This document shows positions 1,330 through 32,215 of a stretch of DNA of 64,000 nt, piece after piece. Each line of letters starts with the position of its first letter. The first letter of the stretch is position 1. Origin of the DNA: Escherichia coli. Its GTDB lineage: Bacteria > Pseudomonadota > Gammaproteobacteria > Enterobacterales > Enterobacteriaceae. A program made the translations under genes and the position numbers. Location of the stretch: NCBI RefSeq assembly GCF_009931435.1, contig NZ_CP043414.1. One strand, written 5' to 3'. The notes under the pieces are model-generated. The model was not told the DNA's origin and made no database searches. It saw only the letters and a program-made list of their open reading frames with translations.

Positions 1330-5010
<3,681 letters not shown>

Positions 5011-22264: not shown

Positions 22265-23050
22265 ATGAGTACAGCACTCGCAACGCTGGCAGGGAAGCTG
22301 GCTGAACGTGTCGGCATGGATTCTGTCGACCCACAGGAACTGATCACCACTCTTCGCCAGACGGCATTTAAAGGTGATGCCAGCGATGCGCAGTTCATCG
22401 CATTGCTGATCGTCGCCAACCAGTACGGCCTTAATCCGTGGACGAAAGAAATTTACGCCTTCCCTGATAAGCAGAACGGCATCGTTCCGGTGGTGGGCGT
22501 TGATGGCTGGTCCCGCATCATCAATGAAAACCAGCAGTTTGATGGCATGGACTTTGAGCAGGACAACGAATCCTGTACATGCCGGATTTACCGCAAGGAC
22601 CGTAATCATCCGATCTGCGTTACCGAATGGATGGATGAATGCCGCCGCGAACCATTCAAAACCCGCGAAGGCAGAGAAATCACGGGGCCGTGGCAGTCGC
22701 ATCCCAAACGGATGTTACGGCATAAAGCCATGATTCAGTGTGCCCGTCTGGCCTTCGGATTTGCTGGTATCTATGACAAGGATGAAGCCGAGCGCATTGT
22801 CGAAAATACTGCATACACTGCAGAACGTCAGCCAGAACGCGACATCACTCCGGTTAACGATGAAACCATGCAGGAGATTAACACTCTGCTGATCGCCCTG
22901 GATAAAACATGGGATGACGACTTATTGCCGCTCTGTTCCCAGATATTTCGCCGCGACATTCGCGCATCGTCAGAACTGACACAGGCCGAAGCAGTGAAAG
23001 CTCTTGGATTCCTGAAACAGAAAGCCACTGAGCAGAAGGTGGCAGCATGA
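22265..23050 (+). CDS. bet: Bet (Red-beta single-strand annealing protein)
   Basis: 261 aa, matches lambda Bet. Confidence 0.95.
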
Positions 23051-23727
23051 TACCGGACATTATCCTGCAGCGTACCGGGATCGACGTGAGAGCTGTCGAA
23101 CAGGGGGATGATGCATGGCACAAATTACGGCTCGGCGTCATCACCGCTTCAGAAGTTCACAACGTGATAGCAAAGCCCCGCTCAGGAAAGAAGTGGCCTG
23201 ACATGAAAATGTCCTACTTCCACACCCTGCTGGCTGAGGTTTGCACCGGTGTGGCTCCGGAAGTTAATGCTAAGGCGCTGGCCTGGGGAAAACAGTACGA
23301 GAACGACGCCAGAACCCTGTTTGAATTCACTTCCGGCGTGAATATTACTGAATCCCCGATCATCTATCGCGACGAAAGTATGCGCACCGCCTGCTCTCCC
23401 GATGGTTTATGCAGTGACGGCAACGGCCTTGAACTGAAATGCCCGTTTACCTCCCGGGATTTCATGAAATTCCGGCTCGGTGGTTTCGAGGCAATAAAAT
23501 CGGCTTACATGGCCCAGGTGCAGTACAGCATGTGGGTGACGCGAAAAGATGCCTGGTACTTTGCCAACTATGACCCGCGCATGAAGCGTGAAGGCCTGCA
23601 TTATGTCGTGATTGAGCGGAATGAAAAGTACATGGCGAGTTTTGACGAGATGGTGCCGGAGTTCATCGAAAAAATGGACGAGGCACTGGCTGAAATTGGT
23701 TTTGTATTTGGGGAGCAATGGCGATGA
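23047..23727 (+). CDS. exo: Exo (lambda exonuclease)
   Basis: 226 aa, near-identical to lambda Exo; full length. Confidence 0.95.
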
Positions 23728-23906
23728 CGCATCCTCACGATAATATCCGGGTAGGCGCGATCACTTTCGTCTACTCCGTTACAAAGCGAGGCTGGGTATT
23801 TCCCGGCCTTTCTGTTATCAGAAATCCACTGAAAGCACAGCGGCTGGCTGAGAAGATAAATAATAAACGGGAGGCGGTATGCACAAAGCATCTCCTGTTG
23901 AGTTAA
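23718..23906 (+). CDS. Lambda orf60a-like small protein
   Basis: 62 aa, matches recalled lambda orf60a. Confidence 0.6.
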
Positions 23907-24070
23907 GAACGAGTATTGAGATGGCACATAGCCTTGCTCAAATTGGAGTCAGGTTTGTGCCAATACCAGTAGAAACAGACGAAGAATTTCATACGTTAGC
24001 CACATCCCTTTCACAAAAGCTGGAAATGATGGTGGCGAAAGCAGAAGCAGATGAGAGAGACCAGGTATGA
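23879..24070 (+). CDS. Lambda orf63-like small protein
   Basis: 63 aa, matches recalled lambda orf63. Confidence 0.6.
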   Translation: MHKASPVELRTSIEMAHSLAQIGVRFVPIPVETDEEFHTLATSLSQKLEMMVAKAEADERDQV

Positions 24071-24150
24071 CAACCACTGAATGCATTTTTCTGGCAGCGG
24101 GCTTCATATTCTGTGTGCTTATGCTTGCCGACATGGGGCTTGTTCAATGA
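24067..24150 (+). CDS. Candidate 27-aa hydrophobic peptide (MTTTECIFLAAGFIFCVLMLADMGLVQ), translationally coupled to neighbours
   Basis: ATGA overlaps at both ends (24067 and 24147); not in the ORF track. Confidence 0.35.
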   Translation: MTTTECIFLAAGFIFCVLMLADMGLVQ

Positions 24151-24362
24151 CACCTCAGCAAGAAAACGCCCTTCGCAGCATTGCCCGTCAGGCTAATTCT
24201 GAAATCAAAAAAGCCAGACAGCATTTTCCGGATAAAAACGTCGATGACATTTGCCGTAGCGTACTAAAGAAGCACCGCGAAACGGTAACGCTGATGGGAT
24301 TCACACCGACTCATTTAAGCCTGGCGATCGGCATGTTGAACGGCGTCTTTAAGGAACGGTGA
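24147..24362 (+). CDS. Hypothetical small prophage protein
   Basis: 72 aa from MTPQQENALRSIARQ; the track ORF starts earlier at 24081. Confidence 0.5.
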   Translation: MTPQQENALRSIARQANSEIKKARQHFPDKNVDDICRSVLKKHRETVTLMGFTPTHLSLAIGMLNGVFKER

Positions 24363-24460
24363 ACATGAAAAGCAAAATCATCAGGGAGCTACAGGCTCCT
24401 TTTTTATTATTCGCATTTACCCTCAAGCGTATTAACCAACAATTCAGGGATTAATGAAAG

Positions 24461-24679
24461 ATGGCAGACATCATTGATTCAGCATCAGAAATCGAAGAAT
24501 TACAGCGCAATACAGCAATAAAAATGCGTCGTCTGAACTACCAGACTGTATCCGCAACTCATTGTTGTGAGTGTGGCGATCCGATAGATGAGCGAAGACG
24601 CCTGGCTGTTCAGGGTTGTCGGACTTGTGCGAGTTGCCAGGAGGAGATCGAACTTAAGAACAAACAATGGGGACTGTGA
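24461..24679 (+). CDS. TraR/DksA-family C4 zinc-finger protein
   Basis: 72 aa with CxxC-N17-CxxC (CCECGDP ... CRTCASC). Confidence 0.7.
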   Translation: MADIIDSASEIEELQRNTAIKMRRLNYQTVSATHCCECGDPIDERRRLAVQGCRTCASCQEEIELKNKQWGL

Positions 24680-24726
24680 TGGCCTCAAAGCAGCAAATTT
24701 CAACATCGTCCAACTGAGGTGTAAAA

Positions 24727-25005
24727 ATGTTCAGAATCATTTTTCCTAACACCTGGTACGTCGACCACCACGGCACTCCCTGCAAAATCCTGCGTTCTAC
24801 CCACAACAAAGTTCACTACATCCGAAAAGGCAGAACATGTATCGCCAGCATGTTCCGCTTTAATCATGACTTTGAACCTGTGAATAAAGCTGATGCAGAT
24901 CGGATAGCAGAAGAGATCGAAACGGCAGAACACATTAAGAAGTTACGTGACATGCGTTCAAAAAGCAGAGGTAACCATGGAATCATACAGCCTCACACTC
25001 GATGA
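24727..25005 (+). CDS. Hypothetical prophage protein
   Basis: 92 aa ORF upstream of xis. Confidence 0.4.
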   Translation: MFRIIFPNTWYVDHHGTPCKILRSTHNKVHYIRKGRTCIASMFRFNHDFEPVNKADADRIAEEIETAEHIKKLRDMRSKSRGNHGIIQPHTR

Positions 25006-25348
25006 GGCCTGTCAGTTTCTTAAGATATCCAGACCAACCGCCACCAACTGGATACGAACAGGCCGCCTACAGGCAACACGTAAAGATCCAACCAAGCCAA
25101 AATCTCCTTACCTCACAACACGGCAAGCCTGCATTGCGGCGCTTCAGTCTCCGCTGCATACTGTCCAGGTGAGCGCGGGTGATGGCATAACAGAGGAAAG
25201 AAAATGTCACTCTTCCGCAGAAATGAAATATGGTATGCCTCGTATTCGCTCCCGGGCGGGAAACGAATTAAGGAATCTCTTGGCACAAAGGACAAGCGGC
25301 AAGCTCAGGAGTTGCACGACAAGCGAAAAGCAGAACTCTGGCGAGTAG
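24977..25348 (+). CDS. xis: Putative excisionase; 3' end uncertain, ORF overlaps the int start
   Basis: ORF directly upstream of int with HTH-like N-terminus ([26 protein letters not shown]); possibly a pseudogene as in K-12 xisD. Confidence 0.45.
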
Positions 25349-26367
25349 AAAAGCTAGGGGATTTACCTGATGTCACTTTTGAAGAGGCCTGCCTAAGATG
25401 GCTTGAGGAAAAAGCTGATAAAAAATCTCTCGATTCAGATAAAAGCCGGATTGAGTTCTGGCTTGAACATTTTGAGGGTATAAGGCTTAAAGATATCTCG
25501 GAGGCAAAGATTTACTCTGCTGTAAGCAGAATGCATAACAGAAAGACGAAAGAAATATGGAAACAGAAAGTTCAGGCCGCCATCAGGAAAGGTAAAGAAC
25601 TGCCTGTTTATGAACCAAAGCCAGTATCAACTCAGACAAAGGCAAAGCATCTTGCCATGATAAAGGCCATTCTCCGTGCTGCAGAACGCGACTGGAAGTG
25701 GCTGGAAAAAGCGCCTGTCATCAAGATACCAGCGGTCAGAAACAAGCGAGTCAGATGGCTGGAAAAGGAGGAAGCAAAACGCCTTATTGATGAGTGCCCC
25801 GAACCACTGAAATCTGTCGTCAAGTTTGCGCTGGCAACTGGTCTGAGAAAGTCGAACATCATAAATCTGGAATGGCAACAAATCGACATGCAGCGACGAG
25901 TTGCCTGGGTGAATCCAGAAGAGAGCAAATCAAACCGCGCCATTGGTGTGGCGCTGAACGATACCGCCTGTAAAGTGTTGCGTGATCAAATAGGCAAGCA
26001 TCACAAATGGGTGTTTGTACATACCAAGGCGGCTAAGCGAGCAGATGGAACATCAACGCCTGCGGTCAGGAAGATGCGCATCGACAGCAAGACATCATGG
26101 CTATCAGCTTGTCGTCGTGCAGGAATTGAAGATTTCCGTTTCCATGACCTCAGACACACCTGGGCAAGCTGGCTGATTCAGTCAGGCGTCCCATTATCAG
26201 TGCTTCAGGAAATGGGCGGATGGGAGTCCATAGAAATGGTTCGTAGGTATGCTCACCTTGCGCCTAATCATTTGACAGAGCATGCGAGGAAAATAGACGA
26301 CATTTTTGGTGATAATGTCCCAAATATGTCCCACTCTGAAATTATGGAGGATATAAAGAAGGCGTAA
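25204..26367 (+). CDS. intD: Tyrosine integrase (DLP12 IntD-type)
   Basis: 387 aa; C-terminal R...HxxR...Y catalytic region; adjacent to tRNA-Arg. Confidence 0.95.
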
Positions 26368-26382
26368 CTGATTGAATTGTAA

Positions 26383-26459
26383 TGGCGCGCCCTGCAGGAT
26401 TCGAACCTGCGGCCCACGACTTAGAAGGTCGTTGCTCTATCCAACTGAGCTAAGGGCGC
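26383..26459 (-). tRNA. argU: tRNA-Arg (anticodon UCU), argU; phage attachment site at its 3' end
   Basis: 77-nt reverse complement gives acceptor stem GCGCCCU/AGGGCGC, anticodon loop CUUCUAA, T-arm GGTTCGAATCC, 3' CCA. Confidence 0.95.
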
Positions 26460-26701
26460 GTTGATACCGCAATGCGGTGTAATCGCGTGAATTATACGGT
26501 CAACCCTTGCTGAGTCAATGGCTTTTGATCTGGTTGCTGAACAAGTGAACGACCGCGTCTGATTTTCTGATTTATTTCGCTATAGCGGCAAACAAACGTA
26601 CACCGCTGCGCGTCTGAATCAAGAAAACCCGTATTTTCATGTATCAAAGTACAATTTCCCGCCCTAACGGAAAATTGTCCGATCCTATGAGACTGATAAC
26701 T

Positions 26702-27334
26702 ATGAAACCAACGTCGGTGATCATTATGGATACTCATCCTATCATCAGAATGTCTATTGAAGTTCTGTTGCAAAAAAACAGTGAATTGCAGATTGTCCTG
26801 AAAACGGATGATTACCGCATAACCATCGACTATCTCCGAACCCGTCCTGTTGATTTAATCATTATGGATATAGACTTGCCCGGTACAGACGGTTTTACCT
26901 TCCTGAAAAGGATCAAACAAATCCAGAGTACAGTGAAAGTATTATTTTTATCATCGAAATCAGAATGCTTTTATGCTGGCAGAGCGATACAAGCTGGTGC
27001 TAACGGTTTTGTCAGTAAATGCAATGATCAGAATGATATTTTTCATGCCGTTCAGATGATTCTCTCTGGATACACTTTTTTTCCCAGCGAAACGCTCAAC
27101 TATATAAAAAGCAATAAATGCAGTACGAATAGTTCAACGGTCACTGTGCTATCTAATCGTGAAGTGACCATATTACGTTATCTGGTTAGTGGATTATCTA
27201 ATAAAGAAATTGCCGATAAGTTATTACTTAGCAATAAAACAGTTAGTGCGCATAAATCTAATATTTATGGCAAGCTAGGTTTGCATTCAATTGTAGAGCT
27301 TATCGACTACGCCAAATTATATGAATTAATATAA
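26702..27334 (+). CDS. fimZ: LuxR-family response regulator FimZ
   Basis: 210 aa from MKPTSVIIMDTHPII; receiver domain plus C-terminal LuxR HTH. Confidence 0.9.
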   Translation: MKPTSVIIMDTHPIIRMSIEVLLQKNSELQIVLKTDDYRITIDYLRTRPVDLIIMDIDLPGTDGFTFLKRIKQIQSTVKVLFLSSKSECFYAGRAIQAGANGFVSKCNDQNDIFHAVQMILSGYTFFPSETLNYIKSNKCSTNSSTVTVLSNREVTILRYLVSGLSNKEIADKLLLSNKTVSAHKSNIYGKLGLHSIVELIDYAKLYELI

Positions 27335-27862: not shown

Positions 27863-28870
27863 TCATTGATAATCGACGCGTAAATACCCCAGCGCGCTAA
27901 ACGGTCCTTCGGCAGGTTTTTGACCAGTAATACTGATAGGCCAGGCGCGAAGTGTGACATTGGCTGCCGCAGCTGCATCCAGACGGAAAGGAATAACGCT
28001 ATTGAGATCGTTAGGCGTGATCGGCGTATCGTTCTGATCGGCGACAATAAAACCTAAATCCTGATTGTCCGACACCATCGCCTGACCAGAAACGGCACTG
28101 GCTTCCAGACGCATTGTTAAATAAGCCTGCGCAGCAACATTCGTACATTTGATCGCAATATTCTTGGTTTGTGGCATGACACCATTAGGTCGATTCCCCG
28201 GCCCTGCCGCACTAAATAACGATGCACCGATATCACCAAAATCAAATTCAACAATTTGCCCGGCATTTAATTCGCAGTTTTGCGGTACTTCAACCCGGCC
28301 ACCAAAACTAATGGTATAAACAGGTGTAACCAACGGATCGTAAGGCGTTGATGTCACATACACGGTAAACATCACCTGTCTGGGGATCTCCACCATGTTA
28401 ATAAAAGGACGAATAACCTTTAAACGAAATATCAAACGAGAATCCATCACCCCGAACGGAAGGTTTTGCGAAACGTTAGGATCTGTTCCCATACGGATAT
28501 AATTTTGCGGGGGAAACTGAATATCCATCACGCTATCAACCAGACTCATCGCACCTAATAGATAATCATTTAATTGCATATATTTATAATTATCGATAGT
28601 TTCCTGAACAACAAAGTTGGTGACATAACTACGGTATGTATAATTCACCAGCGTGCCGGGTGGGCAAATTGCTGACACACCTACCCAGCCGGATTTTTCC
28701 GGTAAAACAACAATCTGACCTGGCTGGTTATTGGTGCTATTAAAGACATTTGAGAGATCATAGTGTTCATCTTCTGCTACGCCAGTACTATTTGCACAAA
28801 CAGTAGCCCAGGATATGTTTGTTAACCACAAACATGCCATTGCCAATAATGACCTGCAGATTATCTTCAT
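27863..28870 (-). CDS. sfmH: Fimbrial adhesin-like protein SfmH (start codon uncertain)
   Basis: 335 aa ORF with signal peptide, after the usher gene. Confidence 0.8.
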   Translation of the reverse strand: MKIICRSLLAMACLWLTNISWATVCANSTGVAEDEHYDLSNVFNSTNNQPGQIVVLPEKSGWVGVSAICPPGTLVNYTYRSYVTNFVVQETIDNYKYMQLNDYLLGAMSLVDSVMDIQFPPQNYIRMGTDPNVSQNLPFGVMDSRLIFRLKVIRPFINMVEIPRQVMFTVYVTSTPYDPLVTPVYTISFGGRVEVPQNCELNAGQIVEFDFGDIGASLFSAAGPGNRPNGVMPQTKNIAIKCTNVAAQAYLTMRLEASAVSGQAMVSDNQDLGFIVADQNDTPITPNDLNSVIPFRLDAAAAANVTLRAWPISITGQKPAEGPFSALGYLRVDYQ

Positions 28871-28882
28871 TGATAATTTCCT

Positions 28883-31492
28883 TTATGAGCCAGGATGTGT
28901 GCAAACTGCCGAAATAACAGTGACGGCTTGCTGTAAGCTTTGCTTCGGCAATACATAGTGCGCAATGCAACGTGAGTTCGCGCCGTCTCCCCACTGAACC
29001 AGTAATTCACCAGACAATGGCGCACCACTTAAATAAACTTGCCCGTCATCACCCACCATACTGGTTATTCCGGTACTGTTTTCCCGTACCAGTGATCCAA
29101 ACGGCACCGGTTTTCCGCCCTGGGTAACGGTAATGAGCGCCCGCACGCCTATGCGGGTATCAAAATTGGCACGAACCAACGCGCCTTGCGTCGGCACAAC
29201 GCTGCTAATATTTTTTTCAACATCAATGGAATTCCCCATCGTATTGGTATCAAGCGCGATACGGTTATACCGATAAACCGTGGCATACGGCATCACCGCA
29301 TAGCCGCGCCAGTCGGTTAAAATTCCAGTTTGATTTTCAATGCGTACACCGCCTGCGCCAGGCGCTTTAATCAAAACATTGGTATCCCCTAAAGGCTGGC
29401 TCAGCGTTATACCATTTTCATGCCCGACCACACCGCCAGACAGCTGCCAGTTAACGTCATGTTGATCGCGGTCGTAGTTATACCCGACCCCCAGCGTACC
29501 GTAAGCGGCCTGCCAGTTTGCCGTGGCGCTGCCCGTGTACCCATTATTCGAGGTATCGCCCTGGCTTACGTGATAACTCAGGTTGTGGCCTTCCAGTAAG
29601 GTCCCTCCAACGCCTGCCAGCCAGCTATTTTGCCCGTTGCTGTTACGGTTGGCGTTAAAGGAGGCATAAGCGCGATCGAGCGCATTTTCCCGGGTGTAGC
29701 GACGTTTGGTCAGAACATTGAAAGGCACTGAAACATTAAGTCCGACAATACGTTCGTTATCGGGGATCCCTACAGATTCATTCCACGAAAATGAGAGTGA
29801 ATAACTGATGCCAACCCAGCTGCTGGTATACCCCACCTGATACCAGGTATCTGAATCCGAAGTATTCCAGTATTTTTGATGGGTACCAGAAATATAAAGC
29901 GAGCCAAAGTCATTAAGTGATTGTGAAATATTTAACTGCAAACGGTCTTTACGACTAAAGCGTAAATTGTGGTAATTCACGATTATCGGTTCATCGCGAT
30001 GCTCACCGTCATAATCGTAATCATATTCGTACCCCTCCATTCGACGATACGCAACATCATCAAGGGTATAAAAACCTTGTGTCGAATAGCGGTAACCCAT
30101 TAACTGAAAATTGGTGCCGAAAGTGTTCATTGATTTCGCATAGAGGAAGCGAATGGAATCCCCCTCATGACGACTGTCGTCGGCTAACTGACTGCGCGCA
30201 TGCGTTACATCCAGCGACACTGCGCCCCAGTTCCCGAGGTTGCGCCCCAGCCCTAACAAAAAGGCGGTGTAATTTGCAGATAATTGCGTCCCGCCGTAGG
30301 CAGTAAATTCCTGTGGTAAACCGCCGAGTGCCGTGCCCTGAAAAAAGAAAGGCGACGATTGCTGACTATTACCGCTACGAAAATCGCCCGCCGTCAGGTC
30401 AAATTTGAAACGCCCTTCGCGTTGTAAAATTGGCACTGTTGAATACGGAATAGTGTAATTCTGCTGATTACCATCGCGCTCATCGATGGTGACGTCCAGA
30501 TCGCCATTTGAAGATGTCGGGTGCAAATCTGTAATTTCGAAAGCGCCGGGGGAAACATAGCTTTGATAGATAATAAAACCATTTTGCCGAATCGTTAGCT
30601 GGGCCGCCGTACGGGCAATCCCACGTACCGTTGGGGCAAACCCTTGCTGGCTATCTGGATACATATTATCAGAAGAATAAAGCCGTACACCTCGAAATCC
30701 GACGCCATCGAAAATATCACTCCCTGTATTACCGTCTCCCATTACCAGTTCACTTTTCAGCGGAATAATGGCGCGCTGTACCCAGGTGCCAATATTATTC
30801 CACTGTTCTGAATGATATCCATTTCCGCGAAAATAGTTCCAGGAACCATTGTTGCGTAAACGCCACGGGCCAATATTAATCCCACTGAGTTCACTAAAAA
30901 AATAGCTATCGTTACCATTACCTCTGTTACCGGTAAAATTATAATTCAGGAGTAAAGCAGGAATACCTTCATCCCACTCTTCAGGCGGAATGTAACCGTG
31001 AGCGCTACTCAACAACGCTATCTGAGGAATAGTGATGTTCAGGCGCATCGCTGCAAAATCAAAGTTAATTGTGGCATCAGGTACAGCTTTCAGTAAATTA
31101 ATGCATTTATTATTTTGCTGCTGGGCTAACTCGGGGAATGCACTGCTATTAAGGCCAATTCGTTCAAGGAGTGCCTGGTTAAAACAAGGCATTAACCCAC
31201 CTGATTTATCACCTGTATTTACTGTCGTCGATTCAAATACGATATCCTGTGAACCAATGAACTCATCATTACGCCAGAGATCCACCCGATACACACCCGC
31301 AGGTTGATGATTACCTTTCTCAAAGCGCGATAAATCAGCAACGGATGTACCATTCTCTAATAAAAATGCCGGGTTGAAATAACTTTCCGCATAGCTTAAA
31401 AAGGAGGGTAAAATGGCAATAGATGAATAACAAATTCCGGCCAGACACCAGGTATACCTCTGCGGAATATCCGTAGTAGTGGGTATTTTCAT
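28883..31492 (-). CDS. sfmD: Fimbrial outer-membrane usher SfmD
   Basis: 869 aa usher-family ORF. Confidence 0.9.
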
Positions 31493-31522
31493 AATTAGCT
31501 CTGATATTGTCAGATGATTCGG

Positions 31523-32215
31523 TTAGTTTAAGTTCACTTCTCTGACCGGGGTTACTGAACCATAATCATTAACGGTCTGAAATTTCAGCTTTCCCTGTAC
31601 TCCTGAGGGTAAGGGAATTTGTGAATTAACTCTGGGTGCAGCCATAGCATTCCCCAACTTTTGGCTGCCCACTTGCAGGTTAACCAGGGTGACATAAAAA
31701 GGTGATGGATTATGAACATTGATATAGTTACCGGATCGCGAAAACTTGAGTGTGTCCGGCGCTTCTGCGGGTAATTCTTGTAGTTGAATTGGACGGAGAA
31801 ATAACTTCATGCGCGATAAAATCGCCAGTTGCAAAACATTCCTGCCGTTCAATGCATTTTTATCTACCGAAGGGATCGTCTTAACATTCATCCAGAACAA
31901 AGACTCACGATCTGCCGCCAGCGGTGGACCGGTGTAAATAATACGCAAGGTATTTTCGCTTTTGGGTTCACTAACAAACAGTGGCGGTGTAATGATGAAT
32001 GACTTTTCTTTTACACCGCTACTGTTTTCAATCCACGAATTGACCAGAAAGCGCTCATTGGTATGGCTATTTCTAATCCATACCGCAGTCTGTTTAGCAT
32101 CAGCGGGATAAATAATACGCGTGGCACCTAATGCGATCCCTCCGGCAGCATGGGCGCTGGCCGAAATGATTAAATAAAATATAATGGGCATCAATAACTT
32201 TATTTTAGTCATCAT
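31523..32215 (-). CDS. sfmC: Periplasmic fimbrial chaperone SfmC
   Basis: 230 aa PapD-like chaperone. Confidence 0.9.

Follow-up and report, generated by a model that had tools for sequence, protein, structure and literature searches.

Is the 27-codon reading frame lying between orf63 and orf61 in an Escherichia coli prophage a gene in its own right, and does its hydrophobic product act on its own account or does its translation only carry ribosomes from one neighbour to the next? The starting point was a first-pass annotation of a 64,000-nucleotide stretch of E. coli DNA (the window), in which orf63, a 27-aa hydrophobic peptide and a "72-aa ORF" were described as chained by ATGA overlaps and followed by a TraR/DksA-family zinc-finger protein. 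All of these reading frames are present as described (Table 1), although the third encodes 71 aa, the figure of 72 having been reached because the stop codon was counted in.

Table 1. Features of the exo-xis interval and its downstream neighbours (positions in the window)
Feature	Position	Strand	Basis and remarks
orf60a homolog, 60 aa, DUF1317	23724..23906	+	Pfam PF07026 E=2.5e-38; translation; lambda synteny
orf63 homolog, 63 aa, DUF1382	23879..24070	+	Pfam PF07131 E=7.7e-31
27-aa hydrophobic ORF, MTTTECIFLAAGFIFCVLMLADMGLVQ	24067..24150	+	translation; joins orf63 stop to orf61 start
orf61, 71 aa, predicted three-helix bundle	24147..24362	+	phrog_303 E=1.7e-35, match beginning at profile position 23
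31-aa ORF	24359..24454	+	GTG 24359 overlaps orf61 stop; alternative 29 aa from ATG 24365
Intrinsic-terminator-like hairpin, AGGGAGC-TAC-AGGCTCCTT then T-run	24383..24411	+	sequence scan; inside 31-aa ORF
7-codon ORF, MKDGRHH	24454..24477	+	TAATG to 31-aa stop; runs across zinc-finger start codon
orf73-like TraR/DksA C4 zinc-finger protein, 72 aa	24461..24679	+	Pfam PF01258; 87% identity to lambda Orf73
DUF4222 ORF, 92 aa, downstream neighbour	24727..25005	+	Pfam PF13973 E=1.9e-19
xis, 123 aa	24977..25348	+	phrog_2907 E=5.9e-46, residues 1-116 on profile 2-117 of 117
Integrase, 387 aa	25204..26367	+	phrog_10426 E=1.3e-114

The interval belongs to a lambda-like prophage, of whose early-left (pL) exo-xis operon segment it forms the conserved core. 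The genes orf60a (DUF1317), orf63 (DUF1382), orf61 and orf73 lie in this order on the pL strand, flanked by exo and xis; the gene order is that of lambda, with approximately 97% DNA identity over positions 24030-24370. The ATG of orf60a overlaps the exo stop codon as ATGA and the xis and int genes overlap by 145 nt. That the block is the lambda exo-xis region, and the "72-aa ORF" orf61, had been missed by the first-pass annotation. The module was found in 3,320 of 5,426 complete E. coli genomes (approximately 61%), is at least 93% identical in DNA throughout and is limited to E. coli phages. Loci were gathered by a scan anchored on the flanking sequence, and 175 loci gave 108 unique haplotypes. 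No RNA families besides tRNA were found in the region, and PADLOC gave no above-threshold match to a defence system. The exo-xis block and the TraR-like gene are already known biology; the 27-aa ORF is the part which is new to the descriptions.

From orf63 onwards five reading frames follow each other through conserved overlapping or abutting stop and start codons, and the TraR-type gene comes after them. The junction between orf63 and the 27-aa ORF (ATGA, 24067-24070) is invariant in all 108 haplotypes, and that between the 27-aa ORF and orf61 (24147-24150) reads ATGA in 89 and GTGA in 19 of them; the chaining proposed at first pass is thus real and conserved. The chain goes on beyond the part noticed then, the gap ahead of the zinc-finger gene being taken up by two more tiny ORFs and a terminator hairpin. 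The orf61/31-aa junction is (G/A)TGA at 24359-24362 in 105 haplotypes, and the 31-aa/7-codon junction is TAATG at 24452-24456 in 107. With a pN/pS of 0.17, the 31-aa ORF is found identical in lambda and matches lambda "orf2313", which is translated according to ribosome profiling as related in a review (PMC8614690). The 7-codon ORF, present in 107 of the 108 haplotypes with a peptide that varies freely, is probably lambda "orf2311", to go by what that review says of the region (PMC8614690) and by a numbering in which Orf2310 is Orf73. The stem of the hairpin is invariant in the 108 haplotypes, and a terminator between orf61 and orf73 has been predicted before (PMC4195576).

The sole strong Shine-Dalgarno site of the chain is the GGGAGG of orf63, with an anti-SD duplex of -10.3 kcal/mol that lies beyond the 1st percentile of the background. 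The corresponding energies are -5.6 kcal/mol for the 27-aa ORF, -4.7 for orf61 and -4.9 for the orf73-like gene, against a background 10th percentile of -6.0; the downstream starts of the 27-aa ORF and orf61 are thus without a strong site. Coupling by the unmasking of a hairpin was ruled out, the RNA of positions 24040-24190 having less structure than its shuffled controls (z=+1.95). Judging from these sequence features, it seems likely that the chain is coupled by termination-reinitiation. Ribosomes would load at the strong site of orf63, be handed over at AUGA to the 27-aa ORF and at (A/G)UGA to orf61, and continue at (G/A)UGA to the 31-aa ORF and at UAAUG to the 7-aa ORF, finishing atop the start of the orf73-like gene. 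Coupling of this kind would give gapless translation of the entire 800 nt, including the terminator hairpin, and the genes with weak sites would be expressed in proportion to orf63.

The zinc-finger gene at the end of the chain is, by sequence comparison, the ortholog of lambda Orf73, and its assignment to the TraR/DksA family stands. Pfam PF01258 scored 37.3 bits against a cut-off of 24.9. The zinc ligands C35, C38, C56 and C59 do not vary across the alignment and match the TraR cysteines as a C4 site, and in the DxxDxA motif at residues 3-8 (D3-I-I-D6-S-A8) conservation is complete at D6 and A8 and at least 90% at D3. The AlphaFold model (helices 5-27 and 57-70, mean pLDDT 77) predicts the size and fold of the family, approximately 70-75 aa with an N-helix, a zinc globule and a C-helix. 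Its top Foldseek match was RNA-polymerase-bound TraR 6N57_M (E=9.6e-4, 71 columns), 5W1S_M being also found, and a PDB sequence search matched TraR 5W1S/6N57 too. NCBIfam TIGR02419 (C4_traR_proteo) scored 53.9 bits, below its cut-off of 59.7, which is a near miss of a subfamily model and leaves the Pfam membership and the Orf73 identity unaffected. The binding to RNA polymerase that had been expected of a TraR-like protein has been experimentally shown for lambda Orf73, which takes the DksA site in the secondary channel, competes with DksA and inhibits rrnB P1 (IC50 ~50 nM). Orf73 needs no ppGpp to inhibit the promoters of rRNA and ribosomal proteins, and it increases burst size 3-4 fold; the DxxDxA motif is required for function in both TraR and Orf73 (PMC9239242). 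For the TraR-like part the analysis only confirms known biology.

The 27-aa ORF is open in 108 of 108 haplotypes and its peptide is identical in 91. The peptide is the same in lambda, 933W and Φ24B, and is 100% identical in 138 of 176 phage records despite DNA identity falling to 93%. As the module occurs only in E. coli phages and shows no more than about 7% variation, ~24 variant alleles underlie the selection tests; in them 13 variant sites were synonymous and 9 non-synonymous, where 27% synonymous is expected (p=0.0014), and the site-level test on the overlapping frame gave p=0.59. Nine of the ten common variants are synonymous. The substitution events, whose counts recombination leaves non-independent, fall on codon positions 1:2:3 as 11:6:47, and amount to 47 synonymous and 15 non-synonymous in the 27-aa frame against 6 and 38 in the overlapping one. 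Over the same bases pN/pS is 0.15 in the former and 0.97 in the latter, and the antisense frame with shared wobble positions showed a weak signal (p=0.027). This substitution pattern demonstrates purifying selection on the amino-acid sequence of the frame, and the 27-aa ORF is probably a genuine coding gene.

NCBI/UniRef lists the exact peptide under the name "hypothetical protein", with 981 contigs carrying it. None of the phage and RefSeq records inspected annotates the ORF, the published exo-xis descriptions examined do not include it and searching full texts for the peptide sequence gave no match. No family was found in Pfam, PHROGs or NCBIfam, the best matches (E=0.68 and E=0.034) being noise. 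Two 428-aa members of its protein cluster are an unrelated glycosyltransferase, a clustering artefact. Beside distant orf61 and orf63 homologs (Klebsiella, Vibrio, O157 typing phage) no small-ORF analogue was found; because those of Klebsiella and Vibrio are without an equivalent, the 27-aa ORF would be dispensable for orf61 and TraR function generally.

That the peptide is hydrophobic was borne out: its GRAVY of 1.62 is attained by 4 of the 266 short ORFs in the window (top 1.5%). The hydrophobic segment ECIFLAAGFIFCVLMLA comprises 17 residues, with a summed Hessa ΔG of -0.73 kcal/mol and a mean Kyte-Doolittle value of 2.44, and so has the length, at least 17 residues predicted to insert, of a small single-pass membrane protein. 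The peptide contains no Lys or Arg and its only charges are E5 and D22 (net charge -2); the flanking basic residues of the positive-inside rule are therefore absent, which is atypical for membrane peptides following that rule. By these predictions it is hydrophobic enough for membrane insertion, and we lean towards the view that the product does insert. It would then form a single helix in the inner membrane and might serve as a small membrane-active factor, much as the membrane effector suggested at first pass.

An open frame is in itself unremarkable here, as 52% of composition-matched random spacers remain open. A chance spacer ORF, conserved through the recent ancestry of a near-clonal module (at least 93% identical), would agree with this. 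It would agree also with the ribosome-profiling study of lambda, for which the account in the review gives only a 7-aa and a 31-aa frame as extra ORFs in this region and, as far as that account goes, not the 27-aa one (PMC8614690), and with a length that is under the minimum of many gene callers and unannotated in the inspected records. Shared ancestry, however, would not pile substitutions on the third positions of one frame, nor can it give so different a pN/pS to two frames over the same bases, and nucleotide diversity at the ORF is no lower than in the adjacent genes. The coding status of the ORF goes beyond chance because of the substitution pattern, the evolutionary evidence being decisive where the open frame alone is not, and we regard the absence of a gene as very improbable. 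It is also unlikely that the ORF serves only as a relay, its translation carrying ribosomes from orf63 to the weak-SD orf61 and covering the mRNA while the peptide is functionless and degraded. The stop/start overlaps at both ends in every haplotype and the weak Shine-Dalgarno site of orf61 are consistent with such a role; behind other genes orf61 is directly coupled or has its own site, with no small ORF, and the 7-aa ORF of the chain is clearly unconstrained in sequence. Yet a relay needs merely an open frame of the right length, which fits poorly with the low pN/pS, the synonymous nature of the common variants and the identical peptide in most haplotypes, and it leaves the strong hydrophobicity unexplained.

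The literature gives orf61 a length of 93 aa (61 aa in lambda), with a start at ATG 24081 (or 24051) and the N-terminal MHFSGSGLHILCAYACRHG, and the 27-aa frame would be merely an out-of-frame overlap. The GenBank entries of Φ24B, 933W and Turner follow this model, as has structural modelling, and ATG 24081 and its open frame are found in all haplotypes. The extension is nevertheless neutral (pN/pS 0.97, 6 synonymous and 17 non-synonymous), there is no Shine-Dalgarno site ahead of 24081 and the lambda-type start at 24051 meets an in-frame TGA in most haplotypes. Moreover, the published structural models rate residues 1-23 as unreliable, the long forms are insoluble on over-expression, and the homologs of other genera and the PhiR5_1 mosaic do not have the extension. 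In PhiR5_1 orf61 begins at the same Met with its own GAGG Shine-Dalgarno site; the Klebsiella homolog "MTPEEKKNALRSIARRAN" has the same Met start and an ATGA junction to a different upstream gene, and 18 divergent homologs (68-78 aa) align from residue 1. Because the mosaic and the Klebsiella and Vibrio homologs begin there, the real start of orf61 is, on this comparative evidence, 24147. The resulting 71-aa protein agrees with the phrog_303 family in profile match, length and start, and its AlphaFold model has a pLDDT of 89. We hold the literature model to be extremely unlikely: the 93-aa ORF from ATG 24081 is an annotation artefact, and the models published for Stx phage (93 aa) and lambda (61 aa), both of which overlap the 27-aa ORF, carry a spurious N-terminus.

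The names given to the 71-aa protein were also considered. ZapA, its RefSeq name, is unsupported (Pfam ZapA 14.7 bits, where the cut-off is 23.8), with no NCBIfam match and no ZapA among the Foldseek hits. A homeodomain-like DNA-binding fold has been suggested for Orf61 (PMC8614690); structural comparison of the predicted three-helix model gave this label no clear support.

The published Δorf61 deletions also take out the 27-aa ORF, and for this reason part of the published pro-lytic Δorf61 phenotype may be the peptide's. A contribution of the peptide to that phenotype is possible, though short of probable. The full reading, in which lambda and Stx phages possess a 27-aa transmembrane-peptide gene that forms one link of a five-ORF relay and explains part of the Δorf61 phenotypes, is tentative and rather doubtful. 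Ribosomes loaded at a single strong start would be brought by the relay to orf61 and, across the terminator hairpin, to the TraR-like gene, and the peptide rather than Orf61 would underlie at least some of the effects of "Δorf61" on the lysis-lysogeny decision and on prophage induction. A reading based on the peptide is likelier in lambda because lambda orf61 is frameshifted. Should the 27-aa ORF prove to be a real gene, the orf61 deletion phenotypes in the literature would need reassignment and lambda, the best-studied phage, would gain one gene. In addition, constructs and structural models derived from the 93-aa and 61-aa forms would need redoing with the 71-aa protein, and the wrong forms may also account for the insolubility of Orf61. 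The block also occurs in Shiga-toxin phages, whose exo-xis genes modulate prophage induction and therefore toxin release.

Compared with the lambda exo-xis region (orf60a-orf63-orf61-orf73) studied by the Węgrzyn and Donaldson laboratories, the block has the same genes in the same order, and the terminator between orf61 and orf73 is common to both. It differs in that orf61 is intact (71 aa), whereas the lambda gene has a +1 frameshift (A7 in place of A6), and in that a DUF4222 gene and a P22/DLP12-type xis-int follow downstream, where lambda has ea22, ea8.5, xis and int. The 27-aa ORF does not figure in the published description of the lambda region. The zinc-finger protein is 87% identical to lambda Orf73 and 31-32% identical over its full length to TraR of the F plasmid. 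All three are 72-73 aa long, with a helix at either end, an N-terminal DxxDxA and a C4 zinc site. It has six cysteines like Orf73, whereas TraR has four, and its last ~12 residues (…EEIELKNKQWGL) differ from those of Orf73 (…EDLELISKQRGSK).

Termination-reinitiation systems (AUGA/UGAUG) have the four-base ATGA/GTGA overlaps and weak downstream Shine-Dalgarno sites seen here, and the same type of overlap is found at the bet/exo and exo/orf60a junctions of the operon. Many phage and bacterial operons have such junctions, but a chain with five of them in succession within 800 nt is unusually long, and three of its links are ORFs of 27, 31 and 7 codons. Small membrane proteins of less than 50 aa such as AcrZ, YohP and the type I toxins TisB and Ibs likewise possess one hydrophobic stretch of membrane-spanning length, and TisB and ShoB have a GRAVY similar to that of the 27-aa peptide. 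The peptide differs from proteins of the AcrZ, YohP, TisB and Ibs type in having neither basic residues nor similarity to any family, and no antisense RNA partner is evident for its ORF. Moreover, in contrast to the stand-alone genes of small membrane proteins, the 27-aa ORF is embedded in an operon through what is likely translational coupling.

Translation of the window reproduces the ORFs and the ATGA overlaps that the first-pass annotation had described between orf63, a 27-aa ORF and a third ORF. The third ORF, given there as 72 aa, is present but has 71 residues plus the stop codon, which is the sole correction. Among 108 unique haplotypes obtained from 175 loci, the junction of orf63 with the 27-aa ORF is ATGA without variation, and that of the 27-aa with the 71-aa ORF is ATGA in 89 and GTGA in 19. 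The chain extends further than had been described, as a GTG or ATG overlapping the stop of the 71-aa ORF opens a 31-aa ORF, whose own stop overlaps the start of a 7-codon ORF. This last ORF is present in 107 of the haplotypes and is probably the 'orf2311' of lambda ribosome profiling. Every base of 23879-24679 is covered by some forward reading frame.

Features of the orf63-int segment (window coordinates)
Feature	Position	Strand	Remarks
orf63	23879-24070	+	
27-aa ORF	24067-24150	+	
71-aa ORF (orf61)	24147-24362	+	
31-aa ORF	24359-24454	+	
Intrinsic-terminator-like hairpin with T-run	24383-24411		inside 31-aa ORF; stem invariant in 108 haplotypes
7-codon ORF (MKDGRHH)	24454-24477	+	TAATG link to 31-aa stop; covers orf73-like (zinc-finger) start codon
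Zinc-finger ORF (orf73-like)	24461-24679	+	
xis	24977-25348	+	123-aa excisionase ORF; PHROG excisionase profile matched end to end
int	25204-26367	+	first 145 nt overlapped by xis in another frame

The 27-aa ORF encodes MTTTECIFLAAGFIFCVLMLADMGLVQ, a peptide that lambda, 933W, Φ24B and 138 of 176 phage records share without any change, the DNA differing by at most 7%, and the ORF is intact in all 108 haplotypes (one codon shorter in two). A site-level test divided the variant alleles into 13 synonymous and 9 non-synonymous, against an expectation of 27% synonymous (p=0.0014). In the frame of the 93-aa extension, which belongs to a published longer model of orf61, these bases gave 6 and 17 (p=0.59), and the accepted orf61 gene, for comparison, 20 and 19 (p=0.0012). 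Ten variants occur in at least four haplotypes, nine being synonymous and one F→L. Parsimony events at codon positions 1:2:3 are 11:6:47; recombination inflates these counts, so the site-level test is the more cautious of the two. By pairwise pN/pS the 27-aa ORF (0.15) lies between orf61 (0.08) and the orf73-like gene (0.23), and orf63 has a value of 0.34. A DNA or RNA element fails to explain this pattern because nucleotide diversity within the 27-aa ORF is not lowered. These comparisons, made among E. coli phages only and at shallow divergence, provide evidence for a genuine gene; no relatives of the peptide were found outside E. coli lambdoid phages. Within the block, purifying selection in this sample is weakest on orf63 (23879-24066), a gene with a solved protein structure (16 synonymous and 33 non-synonymous at site level, p=0.17); the unannotated 27-aa ORF gives a stronger signal.

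The simplest reading of the chain is termination-reinitiation. In this segment only orf63 is preceded by a strong Shine-Dalgarno site (GGGAGG, -10.3 kcal/mol), and those of the 27-aa ORF (-5.6), orf61 (-4.7) and the orf73-like gene (-4.9) are weak and within the random-window background. Around the junctions the mRNA has, if anything, less structure than usual. Ribosomes ending orf63 would restart on the AUG that overlaps its stop, that of the 27-aa ORF, and proceed likewise along the chain. A terminator between orf61 and orf73 has been predicted in the literature (PMC4195576), and, as the hairpin sits within the 31-aa ORF, ribosomes crossing that ORF could, speculatively, affect its read-through before the TraR-like gene. 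The 27-aa ORF might serve as a mere relay element under reinitiation; from such an element it is distinguished by its amino-acid conservation, whereas the 7-aa peptide of the same chain varies freely. This difference favours the reading of its product as a small inner-membrane peptide, which would be made early from pL.

The peptide was correctly annotated as hydrophobic at first pass. It has a GRAVY of 1.62, zero basic residues and a 17-residue stretch predicted to insert in the membrane, and only 4 of 266 short ORFs of the window are equally hydrophobic. No family match was obtained in Pfam, PHROGs, NCBIfam or PADLOC and a full-text literature search for the peptide gave no result. In a review of the region, the extra ORFs from ribosome profiling are those of 7 and 31 aa only (PMC8614690). 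The sequence is not wholly unseen before: it exists in NCBI/UniRef as 'hypothetical protein', called on 981 contigs. What is new here is the evidence for the 27-aa ORF, absent from the phage and RefSeq annotations inspected, as a genuine gene, and also a corrected gene model of orf61.

The 71-aa gene is orf61, and the N-terminus of its published models is wrong. A 93-aa ORF from ATG 24081 is called in GenBank for Turner, Φ24B (vb_24B_7c) and Lambda_2E9, and the 71-aa form in RefSeq and phage 21; lambda orf61 is a 61-aa ORF starting 96 nt further upstream. Lambda NC_001416 (locus L003, 3340-3525, equivalent to window 24051-24240) reads GGA against the in-frame TGA of the window at 24078, and has an additional A in the A-run 24206-24211 (A7 versus A6), a +1 frameshift which breaks orf61. 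On this alignment the reference lambda 'orf61' is the product of the frameshift and the TGA/GGA difference relative to the intact 71-aa gene. The lambda-derived records DE3, imm434 and HK630 have the same two changes, and most relatives have the intact gene.

That 24147 is the true start follows from four lines of evidence. PhiR5_1 is a mosaic phage with another gene upstream, and its orf61 begins at the equivalent ATG, preceded by a GAGG Shine-Dalgarno site belonging to it. The homolog in a Klebsiella phage (47% identical, N-terminus MTPEEKKNALRSIARRAN) shares an ATGA junction with the 255-aa gene upstream, which is unrelated, and has a TraR-like gene 1 nt downstream. The divergent full-length relatives from an exhaustive HMMER search are all of 68-78 aa and aligned from residue 1, and the 22-codon extension of the 93-aa model evolves neutrally (pN/pS 0.97) and lacks a Shine-Dalgarno site. 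Residues 1-23 were unreliable in published modelling of the 93-aa form (PMC8614690). Orf61 was insoluble on over-expression (PMC6213356). Our model of the 71-aa protein has three confidently predicted helices (pLDDT 89). Nothing in the PDB matches it significantly in structure, and this search lent no support to the 'homeodomain-like' proposal. The RefSeq name 'cell division protein ZapA' (e.g. NC_000924, NC_004914) looks like a propagated misannotation; the Pfam score is 14.7 bits against a cut-off of 23.8, with no NCBIfam or fold support.

In the published Δorf61 mutants 'the nucleotide sequence of orf61' was replaced (PMC6213356). This interval contains the whole 27-aa ORF (30925-31008) in lambda (orf61, 30839-31024) and its codons 6-27 in Φ24B (vb_24B_7c), and because of this the pro-lytic phenotypes credited to orf61 cannot be told apart from an effect of losing the small ORF. 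Lambda's orf61 is frameshifted in any case.

The plus-strand order over 22265-26367 is bet, exo, orf60a (DUF1317), orf63 (DUF1382), the 27-, 71- and 31-aa ORFs, the 72-aa zinc-finger ORF (zf-dksA_traR), an ORF with DUF4222, xis and int, the domains being Pfam assignments. Beyond int lie a minus-strand tRNA-Arg(UCU) and a fimZ-like gene. Several temperate E. coli phages match a 1.55-kb stretch at 98-100% identity, and lambda itself is 97% identical across the 341 nt of 24030-24370. The module was found in 3,320 of 5,426 complete E. coli genomes, in up to five copies per genome; the conserved arrangement is real and lies within a region known before. The prophage adjoins the tRNA, then a response regulator resembling fimZ and a fimbrial usher/chaperone cluster (26383-27334, 27863-32215); in E. 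coli K-12 this is the argU/DLP12 attachment site.

At xis RefSeq has only a 66-nt HTH pseudogene fragment and phage Turner (PP925837, locus L001) an ORF in the wrong frame; Turner also has an overlapping wrong-frame ORF at 2389-2550 in place of the missed TraR-like ORF, and its tRNA beside int (4184-4267) is labelled tRNA-Pro, while ARAGORN gives tRNA-Arg(tct) at the equivalent window site (26383-26459). MW057783.1, 'Campylobacter phage CJLB-4' (matches H44 and H147; 48,361 bp, labelled a Campylobacter jejuni phage), agrees at 97% with the lambda exo-xis segment, the lambda-specific orf61 frameshift included; by its sequence it looks like lambda DNA under a wrong name.

The first-pass assignment of the zinc-finger protein to the TraR/DksA family stands. 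It has the DxxDxA motif at D3, D6 and A8, four cysteines invariant as far as F-plasmid TraR, and end-to-end alignment with TraR chains 5W1S_M and 6N57_M; the best PDB match of its AlphaFold model (pLDDT 77) is TraR bound to RNA polymerase. One NCBIfam subfamily cut-off was barely missed (53.9 versus 59.7 bits). In the Klebsiella phages KpnBHU6 (L209, 901-1336) and ST405-OXA48phi1.2 (L210, 901-1307), a TraR-like gene again accompanies orf61 (1-nt gap) and orf63 (4-nt overlap), at only ~47-59% identity. Such recurring pairings hint at a functional link of the orf61 and orf63 proteins with an RNA-polymerase regulator. The first-pass reading of this gene was right, and binding to RNA polymerase had already been proven for the ortholog Orf73, encoded by a 73-aa ORF unannotated in lambda (87% identity). 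In the work of Gourse and colleagues, Orf73 was shown to compete with DksA for RNA polymerase, to inhibit rrnB P1 without ppGpp (IC50 ~50 nM), to require D3 and D6, and to raise phage yield after induction 3-4 fold (PMC9239242). The TraR-like interpretation of this gene is thus already known from lambda.
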